A stretch of 46,955 nt of DNA from a virus (IMGVR_UViG_643348547_000013); one strand, 5' to 3'. Positions 12,619 through 13,594 are shown, numbered from the stretch's first letter. The notes: generated by a model from the sequence alone, not told the origin. Numbers and translations are program-made.

Positions 12619-13271
12619 TGAGTAATAAATATTGCCAGGAGCTGGTGGAACTGCGGAACAAACCAGCCCATGAACTGAAGGAAGTGGGCGATCAGTGGCG
12701 CACGCCGGACAACATTTTCTGGGGAATTAACACCCTGTTTGGTCCGTTTGTTCTGGATCTGTTCACTGACGGTGATAACGCCAAATGCGCTGCGTATTAC
12801 ACGGCGGAAGACAACGCGCTGGCGCATGACTGGTCAGAACGCCTTGCGGAGCTTAAAGGTGCTGCCTTTGGAAATCCCCCATACAGCCGCGCCAGTCAGC
12901 ATGAGGGGCAATACATCACCGGCATGCGTTACATCATGAAGCATGCCAGTGCCATGCGTGATAAGGGCGGGCGCTATGTTTTCCTGATCAAAGCTGCCAC
13001 CAGCGAAGTGTGGTGGCCGGAAGATGCAGATCATATTGCTTTTATTCGCGGGCGTATTGGTTTTGAACTGCCTGCCTGGTTTATCCCGAAGGATGAGAAG
13101 CAGGTGCCGACAGGCGCTTTCTTCGCTGGTGCTATTGCTGTTTTCGACAAGACCTGGAAGGGACCGGCAATCAGCTATATCGGGCGCGATGAACTTGAGG
13201 CATGTGGTGAGGCGTTTCTGGCGCAGGTTCGCCTGCAGGCGGAAAAGCTGGTCAGGGAGATGGCGGCATGA
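12618..13271 (+). CDS. phage N6-adenine DNA methyltransferase (Dam-like)
   Basis: NPPY catalytic motif (FGNPPYSRA); ATG at 12618 overlaps upstream stop. Confidence 0.8.
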   Translation: MSNKYCQELVELRNKPAHELKEVGDQWRTPDNIFWGINTLFGPFVLDLFTDGDNAKCAAYYTAEDNALAHDWSERLAELKGAAFGNPPYSRASQHEGQYITGMRYIMKHASAMRDKGGRYVFLIKAATSEVWWPEDADHIAFIRGRIGFELPAWFIPKDEKQVPTGAFFAGAIAVFDKTWKGPAISYIGRDELEACGEAFLAQVRLQAEKLVREMAA

Positions 13272-13594
13272 CGACGTTAACTCAATGCCAGCAGCAGGTG
13301 CTGGATATGCTGATTTCTTATCAGAAAGAGCGTGGCTTCCCGCCAACCAATCAGGAGGTGGCAACCATGCTGGGATACCGTTCGGTGAATGCAGCGGTGG
13401 AGCATCTTCGCGCACTGGAGAAAAAAGGCGTCATCACGATAAAGCGTGGTGTGGCCCGGGGGATCACGCTTCATACCGCGGTGAAGGACGACGACAGCGA
13501 GGCGGTCGGGATTATCCGCTCACTGCTTGCCGGTGAGGAAAACGCAAGGCTGCGTGCAACTCACTGGTTACATGAGAGAGGCCTGAAAGTATGA
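13268..13594 (+). CDS. LexA DNA-binding-domain-only protein
   Basis: 108-aa product resembling the LexA N-terminal winged-helix domain (GFPPTNQEVATMLGYRSVNAAVEHLRALEKKGVI), no peptidase domain; ATGA overlaps on both sides. Confidence 0.7.
   Translation: MTTLTQCQQQVLDMLISYQKERGFPPTNQEVATMLGYRSVNAAVEHLRALEKKGVITIKRGVARGITLHTAVKDDDSEAVGIIRSLLAGEENARLRATHWLHERGLKV

Follow-up and report, generated by a model that had tools for sequence, protein, structure and literature searches.

What use might a lambdoid prophage have for the DNA-binding half of LexA when the half that carries out self-cleavage is missing? The question is raised by a 108-residue, ATG-initiated open reading frame (ORF) at positions 13268-13594 (+) of the viral sequence IMGVR_UViG_643348547_000013, the whole 46,955-nucleotide stretch of which is referred to here as the window; we use 'LexN' as the name for its product, a LexA-N-terminal-domain protein. 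The answer that we tentatively favour, as something possible if short of probable, is that LexN acts as a RecA-insensitive surrogate for LexA at SOS operators. This reading is suggested by the DNA-contact residues that LexN has kept and by the SOS boxes found around the genes of many of its relatives, and it has to be weighed against other roles that a truncated LexA could play.

The LexN protein

The preliminary description of this locus, made from the DNA itself, took the product to be the LexA N-terminal winged-helix domain without its S24 cleavage domain, and this assignment is fully borne out. LexN is identical in sequence to WP_000210170.1, annotated as 'LexA family transcriptional regulator', and its residues 1-65 match the Pfam profile LexA_DNA_bind (PF01726) over all 65 profile positions (E=2.9e-19). 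Its closest sequence in the PDB is the DNA-binding domain of E. coli LexA (1lea; E=7e-16, ungapped over residues 2-69). Against the NCBIfam lexA equivalog TIGR00498 it reaches 70.8 bits, the cut-off being 110.95, and covers model positions 1-91 of 203 only; its similarity to LexA extends through the hinge to approximately LexA residue 91. The S24 peptidase/dimerisation domain with its Ser119/Lys156 dyad, by which a LexA repressor is recognised, is absent: the Pfam scan gave no PF00717 match to LexN, and the protein stops at residue 108. By comparison, phrog_362 is matched along the full length of the protein (E=1.1e-59; residues 1-108 against profile positions 1-106 of 106).

Two AlphaFold models of LexN, with a predicted local distance difference test score (pLDDT) of 80 from a 13-row alignment and of 83.5 from an 18-row alignment, have the same layout, in which the head is predicted to consist of three helices and a two-strand wing (H6-22, H28-35, H40-52, E56-58 and E66-68). 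Superposition on the LexA N-terminal domain, proposed beforehand as a check of the fold, gave a root-mean-square deviation of 0.9 Å over 67 columns at 51% identity with LexA in the LexA-DNA complex (3jso_B; Foldseek). Along the gene, the winged helix-turn-helix (residues 1-69, homologous to LexA residues 1-69 by PF01726, 1lea, AlphaFold and Foldseek) is encoded at 13268-13474 (+), and within it the recognition helix (residues 40-52, VNAAVEHLRALEK), which carries LexA contact positions and has S39 just before it, at 13385-13423 (+). A flexible linker of low confidence follows (residues 71-75; 13478-13492 (+); pLDDT below 50 in both models), and then a family-specific C-terminal tail of two helices (H74-88 and H93-103; 13487-13576 (+); pLDDT 88-91). 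In short, LexN joins a DNA-binding winged helix that corresponds to LexA residues 1 to ~91 to a short conserved pair of helices, and is similar, both in its length and in what it contains, to the N-terminal product of LexA self-cleavage.

The residues of LexA reported to be in contact with DNA are S39, N41, A42, E44 and E45 (PMC3091678). LexN keeps four of these five (S39, N41, A42 and E45), with Val in place of E44, and K53, R64 and G65 are likewise identical between the two proteins. What it shares with E. coli LexA (1lea, 1jhh, 3jso) is the winged helix-turn-helix, ungapped over residues 2-69 and 51% identical, together with the four contact residues; it differs in having no S24 Ser-Lys protease/dimerisation domain, no conserved Ala-Gly pair and no Glu at position 44, and in possessing the two-helix tail. 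The two genes also differ in their setting, in that LexA has its own SOS-box promoter whereas LexN is phage-encoded and lies inside an early-right operon.

The tail is made up of ~17 additional C-terminal residues and a hinge-derived segment. Its first helix aligns with LexA residues ~75-91, placing 'LLAGE' opposite the 'VAAGE' cleavage site of LexA and A88-G89 opposite A84-G85; this pair gives way to AK, AN or VG among close homologues and to TR, SG or DD among distant relatives. The idea that the tail represents a conserved LexA cleavage site, whether vestigial or functional, was rejected on the ground that Ala-Gly has been lost even among close homologues; lacking a catalytic domain, LexN has no means of self-cleavage. 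The tail as such is nevertheless well kept. An exhaustive profile search recovered relatives of less than 50% identity that have both head and tail (P0122, P0124, P0125, P0128, P0132, P0133, P0138, P0146, P0155 and P0172; 104-165 residues), and in an 18-sequence family alignment reaching down to 38% identity S39, K53, R64, G65, I66, A97 and L101 are invariant, N41 is almost invariant and hydrophobic tail positions are conserved, which argues that the tail is a part of the protein and not the result of read-through. We infer that it may be a dimerisation or partner-binding element.

The gene is real and under purifying selection. Among 45 distinct nucleotide alleles from 77 related loci, a sample skewed to high protein identity, nonsynonymous divergence (dN) is at most 0.008 and synonymous divergence (dS) reaches 0.15; against a 48%-identical relative, dN/dS is 0.19. 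The proteins P0127, P0129, P0136, P0137 and P0140 (141-222 residues) consist of two LexA DNA-binding domains in tandem, again without an S24 domain, and would be single-chain pseudo-dimers of the LexA head; that natural single-chain proteins with two such heads exist is consistent with a need for two of them. A scan of species-representative genomes for the breadth of the family matched only the cellular lexA genes of Halomonas and relatives, and P0138 gave no match in the viral scan.

SOS boxes and neighbours of LexN genes

SOS boxes were scored with a 20-bp position weight matrix (PWM) derived from 21 E. coli SOS boxes of the literature; its training sites score 12.5-27, and a box is called strong here at a score of at least 15. 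LexN loci of the E. coli type hold 63 strong boxes in 1.33 Mb (80 genes, ±10 kb; 4.7 per 100 kb), and those of the Klebsiella type 45 in 0.39 Mb (34 genes; 11.4 per 100 kb). By contrast, control loci that have no LexN hold one strong box in 1.14 Mb around DLP12-type rusA genes (n=80; 0.09 per 100 kb), and one in 1.25 Mb around lambda ninG genes (n=80; 0.08 per 100 kb).

At least one strong box is present in 44 of the 80 E. coli-type loci, at four different recurrent module positions: the start of a methylase moron (26 loci), the linker-coding part of two CI-like repressor alleles (18 and 5 loci), and the interval between rusA and a KilA-N gene (5 loci). The boxes within the two repressor alleles are near-perfect, and lie inside coding sequence (15546-15565 of locus L001, PWM 25.7; 7094-7113 of L052, PWM 27.2); the CI-like gene of L001 is of the S24 type, with the box in the linker between helix-turn-helix and protease, and such boxes recur in 18 and 5 related prophages. 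The strong box between rusA and the KilA-N gene, TACTGTATTTATGAACAGTG (12114-12133 of L037; also in L062, L075, L079 and L083), has a terminator-like hairpin before it. In these five prophages the KilA-N gene, which may encode an antirepressor, would be served by a LexA-controlled promoter of its own, directly downstream of LexN-rusA.

The Klebsiella-type sample comprises 34 loci around relatives of P0132 and 80 loci around a flanking ORF, phrog_1813. A canonical SOS box, represented for this type by TACTGTTTATTTATACAGTA, lies upstream of the operon in 28 of 28 phrog_1813-LexN loci (score 17.6-30.3), at 437-689 bp upstream of LexN in 25 and at 1.4-2.4 kb in three, and in 75 of the 78 loci of a second phrog_1813-LexN set. 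At L013 and L014 the box sits just after a -35/-10 pair with an intrinsic terminator before it, an arrangement that points to a promoter of the operon's own under LexA repression. Between the box and phrog_1813 there is usually an ORF for a homologue of DinI (PF06183, E=8e-22; 79 of 80 and 18 of 34 loci), a known SOS modulator. In several loci its place, behind tandem boxes, is taken by a fragment of the RecA C-terminal domain (PF21096, E=9e-10), presumed to be an SOS modulator too; the gene at 4310-4597 of L017 (found also in L115, L123 and L124) codes for the RecA C-terminal domain only, in 95 residues, and has tandem SOS boxes immediately before it and LexN downstream. The order DinI-hypothetical-LexN-hypothetical-DUF968-Q is present in the named Klebsiella phage ST846-OXA48phi9.1. 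One large LexN subfamily would appear, from this arrangement, to be co-transcribed with other SOS modulators from a LexA-repressed promoter.

The immediate neighbours of LexN are less constant. In the first ten distinct contexts, LexN lies directly, or with one small ORF between, upstream of rusA, and is then followed by DUF968 and the Q antiterminator (10/10), with an upstream gene that varies between Dam, a C5 methylase, PerC, a replication protein and a small ORF; most Klebsiella-type loci, however, read phrog_1813-LexN-phrog_1212-DUF968 and have no rusA. Dam, the linkage to which had been stressed in the preliminary description, was rejected as an obligatory partner as other genes take the upstream position in other phages, and so was RusA, on the evidence of the rusA-less Klebsiella-type loci; neither linkage holds across the family, and the constant companion of LexN is the DUF968-Q block.

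Between the phrog_1813 ORF and LexN there is, in addition, a conserved non-coding element of ~60 nucleotides (L111 ~5895-6000 and L013 ~4940-5000, likewise in L014 and L017). It includes a hairpin with a compensatory stem change, ATAGG..CCTAT against GCTGG..CCAGC, around the loop CCTGAACAA; no Rfam family matched this element upstream of the Klebsiella-type LexN, and its role could lie in antitermination, as a boxB-like site, or in the control of translation.

The prophage in the window

The window is a lambdoid prophage integrated beside yjjG in E. coli, in which an integrase gene is followed by a CI-like S24 repressor, a rightward early operon, a methylase moron, lysis genes and lambda-like structural genes. 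The CI-like immunity repressor (7377-8051 (-)), of the ymfK type and with an S24 domain (PF00717, E=2e-26), is the prophage's own RecA-sensitive switch. The early operon runs in the order ymfT/ymfL, ash, replication gene, PerC, Dam, LexN, RusA, KilA-N, DUF968 and Q. Within it, LexN stands between the gene for a Dam-family N6-adenine methyltransferase (12618-13271 (+); PF05869, E=1e-45) and that for the RusA Holliday-junction resolvase (13591-13980 (+); PF05866, E=1e-14), and shares an ATGA with each: the Dam stop overlaps the LexN start at 13268-13271 (+), and the LexN stop (TGA) overlaps the rusA start at 13591-13594 (+). It had been stated that LexN is translationally coupled between its two neighbours; the overlaps are indeed present at both ends, and it is from these that coupling would follow. 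Further downstream, the genes for KilA-N (14000-14809 (+)), DUF968/HNH (14811-15806 (+)) and a Q-type antiterminator (15820-16572 (+)) make up a conserved block, 14000-16572. No promoter-like site was seen near the LexN gene in the window, so that its transcription would come with that of the early-right operon; LexN belongs to the delayed-early genes of this lambdoid prophage.

The Dam-family methylase (12618-13271) is named 'phosphoadenosine phosphosulfate reductase' in RefSeq phage records, a name that was probably carried over from PHROG 33262, a fusion family, the C-terminal part of which is matched by the methylase. Inside the Ash-family ORF region of the early operon, Rfam matches above the gathering score to the Hfq-binding small RNA isrK (10607-10683; 64 bits) and to C4 antisense RNA (10708-10795; 82 bits) adjoin each other. 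A PADLOC search gave no meaningful match to a defence system.

Two insertions have altered this copy of the prophage. An IS3-family element (~8551-9856; orfA 8604-8930, orfB 8927-9817, with an Rfam ALIL frameshift pseudoknot at 8885-9001) lies ~3.4 kb upstream of LexN, where it interrupts the early-right operon in its ymfL/CII-like gene. The insertion is probably polar on all genes downstream, and the copy looks defective. The second insertion bears on the only genuine operator in the window, the methylase box, which in relatives has the intact form TACTGTAAAAATAAACAGTG (PWM 22.7) at the start of an N6_N4 methylase moron: here it is split by an ISL3-family element (17878-19762) into a left part at 17864-17877 (+) and a right part at 19763-19776 (+), the latter after an 8-bp target duplication, AAAAATAA. 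Between its terminal repeats (GGGTCTTCCCC/GGGGAAGACCC) the element carries a DUF1706 passenger gene (17977-18495) and a transposase gene (18514-19734). The right end of the element supplies the methylase ORF (19746-20801) with a hybrid start codon, and the methylase gene, with its box split as well, may now be uncoupled from LexA control.

Apart from this split box, a scan of the prophage for CTGT-N8-ACAG, which had been suggested as a check, brought up nothing usable: the sole perfect match in the window, at 10350, lies inside the Ash-family ORF, has a PWM score of 6.4 and is at chance level, being equalled in 45 of 100 shuffles. No CTGT-Nx-ACAG spacing from 2 to 14 is enriched in the window.

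Possible roles of a LexA head in phages

As a surrogate for LexA, LexN might work in the following way. The two-helix tail would replace the absent LexA C-terminal domain as a dimerisation element, and the dimer would read SOS operators of the CTGT type through the LexA contact residues that have been kept. RecA* would be unable to trigger its cleavage, such that repression could be re-imposed, or prolonged, at LexA-controlled promoters once the host's LexA had been destroyed. The phage targets would be the methylase moron, the KilA-N gene and, in the Klebsiella-type relatives, LexN's own DinI-containing operon; host SOS genes would probably be targets as well. In the window, where an IS3 element lies upstream and the sole phage box is split, host SOS boxes would be the only targets left, if LexN is made at all. 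It had already been suggested that such a protein could occupy SOS boxes without being cleavable through RecA. The second half of that suggestion stands, there being neither a catalytic domain nor a conserved Ala-Gly; as to the first, binding to CTGT-N8-ACAG boxes is plausible, in view of the four contact residues out of five and the association of LexN's relatives with SOS boxes.

Several points weigh against this proposal. A box upstream of the operon speaks for control by host LexA, and not for binding by LexN. Four other LexN subfamilies (L003-L012, L015-16) have no nearby SOS box, and the window itself has no intact one, its best PWM score being 10.5 against a mean shuffle maximum of 12.4. 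Each of the locus sets consists of related phages, and the controls of one or few lineages, so that the 50- to 140-fold contrast in box density is one not corrected for phylogeny. The DNA specificity of LexN is judged from sequence alone, and on that score position 44 is never Glu anywhere in the family, whilst position 45 is Glu in eight of 13 representatives and otherwise G, D, L, I or V, the commonest Klebsiella type included; specificity may, as a result, have drifted. The tail is a putative dimerisation element. A phage committed to lysis would hardly be expected to repress, through LexN, an operon in which Q is also encoded. Lastly, there is the precedent of GIL01 gp6, a LexA-like head that reads a different palindrome and is an activator, to which LexN might be analogous.

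This precedent leads to the rival that survives best. The gp6 protein of GIL01, a tectivirus of Bacillus, was the one truncated LexA encoded by a phage and already characterised that the literature searched brought up; it is 44% identical to the head of its host's LexA, is produced from a LexA-repressed early operon, and binds a non-SOS palindrome, GaCACAnnTGTGaC, overlapping the -35 element of P3, a LexA-repressed late promoter that it activates (PMC6182141). By analogy, LexN could have shifted its specificity to a phage-specific site and switch a phage promoter on or off, alongside host LexA and not in its place; we hold this to be unlikely, though it has a good deal in its favour. Like LexN, gp6 of GIL01/Bam35 is a phage-encoded LexA DNA-binding domain with no cleavage domain and ~40-50% identity to the host LexA head, and the Klebsiella-type relatives reproduce the GIL01 layout, with a promoter under a LexA operator driving an operon that includes the truncated LexA (28/28 and 75/78 loci); the operon context is fitted equally well by such a model. 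The differences between subfamilies at contact positions 44 and 45 are as expected if targets differ from phage to phage, and in the window's prophage LexN would find no SOS box to bind.

Saying this, inspection of the LexN loci revealed no second shared motif or conserved palindrome beside their SOS boxes, nor is there an enriched spacing in the window that might betray a different site, and S39, N41 and A42 are LexA-like across the family, which would be unusual for a diversifying, phage-specific reader. Where gp6 activates a late promoter, LexN phages use the Q antiterminator for their late genes; gp6 has only a wing after its helix-turn-helix and no helical tail; and, unlike the LexA-repressed operons of gp6 and of the Klebsiella-type relatives, the window has no box or promoter near LexN. 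A tblastn search of 50,697 phage records (E up to 1e-3) gave no tectivirus among 60 listed of the 63 matching records, and no GIL01 or Bam35 record, such that any resemblance to gp6 would be convergent and the capture from the host probably independent. If LexN were nonetheless an activator of the gp6 kind, the LexA head would have been captured independently as a phage regulator in Gram-negative lambdoid phages and in Gram-positive tectiviruses.

Rather improbable, in our estimation, is a role in recombination or replication in which a partner (RusA, the DUF968/HNH protein, RecA, host LexA or RNA polymerase) would be bound by the tail and kept on the DNA by the winged helix. The overlap of LexN's start and stop codons with neighbouring genes would suit it, as would the finding that, in all ten contexts sampled first, at most one small ORF separates LexN from rusA and the DUF968-Q block downstream, and the phrog_1813 and phrog_1212 ORFs that always flank the Klebsiella-type LexN. 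Against it, most Klebsiella-type loci lack rusA and many loci lack Dam; rusA and ninG blocks often occur where LexN is absent; a gene order that has been kept is, in lambdoid nin regions, what the inheritance of modules typically leaves, and is no necessary sign of a physical interaction; and the evidence yields no specific contact with any partner. The weakest idea, a dominant-negative poisoning of host LexA by heterodimerisation, which the preliminary description had raised, is very improbable: the two proteins share the N-terminal domain only, and heads on adjacent half-sites might accommodate a mixed pair on DNA, but LexA dimerises through its C-terminal domain (PMC3091678), which LexN lacks and to whose S24 fold its tail is unrelated, leaving a LexA-LexN heterodimer without a structural basis.

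Returning to LexN as an uncleavable surrogate for LexA, we speculate on one extension, which we consider somewhat doubtful: that in Klebsiella-type phages LexN forms one arm of an 'SOS reset' cassette together with DinI or the RecA C-terminal fragment, deployed after induction. Prophage genes of the DinI-like kind behind SOS boxes have been described in PhiKO2, 186, Gifsy-1/2 and Fels-2 (PMC7556043). They are small, stand behind a canonical LexA box and modulate the host's SOS response, and in the Klebsiella-type phages they share an SOS-box operon with LexN; DinI differs in that it acts on RecA filaments, is not DNA-binding and is not homologous to LexN. A dinI gene is absent from the window's prophage.

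The LexN gene is very common and is already annotated, and its domain architecture is, in itself, not new. At 95% nucleotide identity or more it is present in 2232 of 5426 complete E. coli genomes (~41%) and in 50 phage records. A protein search finds it in 63 phage records, including SfV (orf42, 'unknown'), SfII, SfIV, mEp460, cdtI and Stx2a/Stx2c phages, whose versions are the same gene at 95-100% protein identity. LexN is the core of PHROG 362, named 'transcriptional repressor', and its other database names are 'LexA family transcriptional regulator', 'LexA repressor', 'SOS-response repressor and protease LexA' and 'RecA-mediated autopeptidases', the last two of which are wrong for a protein with no protease domain. 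It is listed as pham 237 in a survey of Stx phages (PMC8136144); the full-text literature yielded only such listings, and no functional study of the protein. What is new relative to the searchable literature is that LexN genes are associated with DinI, with RecA fragments and with LexA operators.

The SOS response, which governs mutagenesis, tolerance of antibiotics, the induction of prophages and the release of Shiga toxin, could be blunted or reshaped by a RecA-proof look-alike of LexA whenever its prophage is active; the gene is carried by about four in ten sequenced E. coli genomes, by the serotype-converting phages of Shigella and by Stx2 phages. Where several prophages share a cell, such a look-alike could also settle which of them prevails once DNA has been damaged. 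If the SOS reset were true, the phage would shut its own SOS-box promoters and the host's SOS regulon while RecA* is still active, the host targets including error-prone polymerases, SulA, colicins and the LexA-controlled antirepressors of rival prophages. Given its presence in ~41% of complete E. coli genomes, and in Stx2 phages among its carriers, LexN would then be a widespread, unrecognised modifier of SOS output, of cross-induction between prophages and, possibly, of toxin release.

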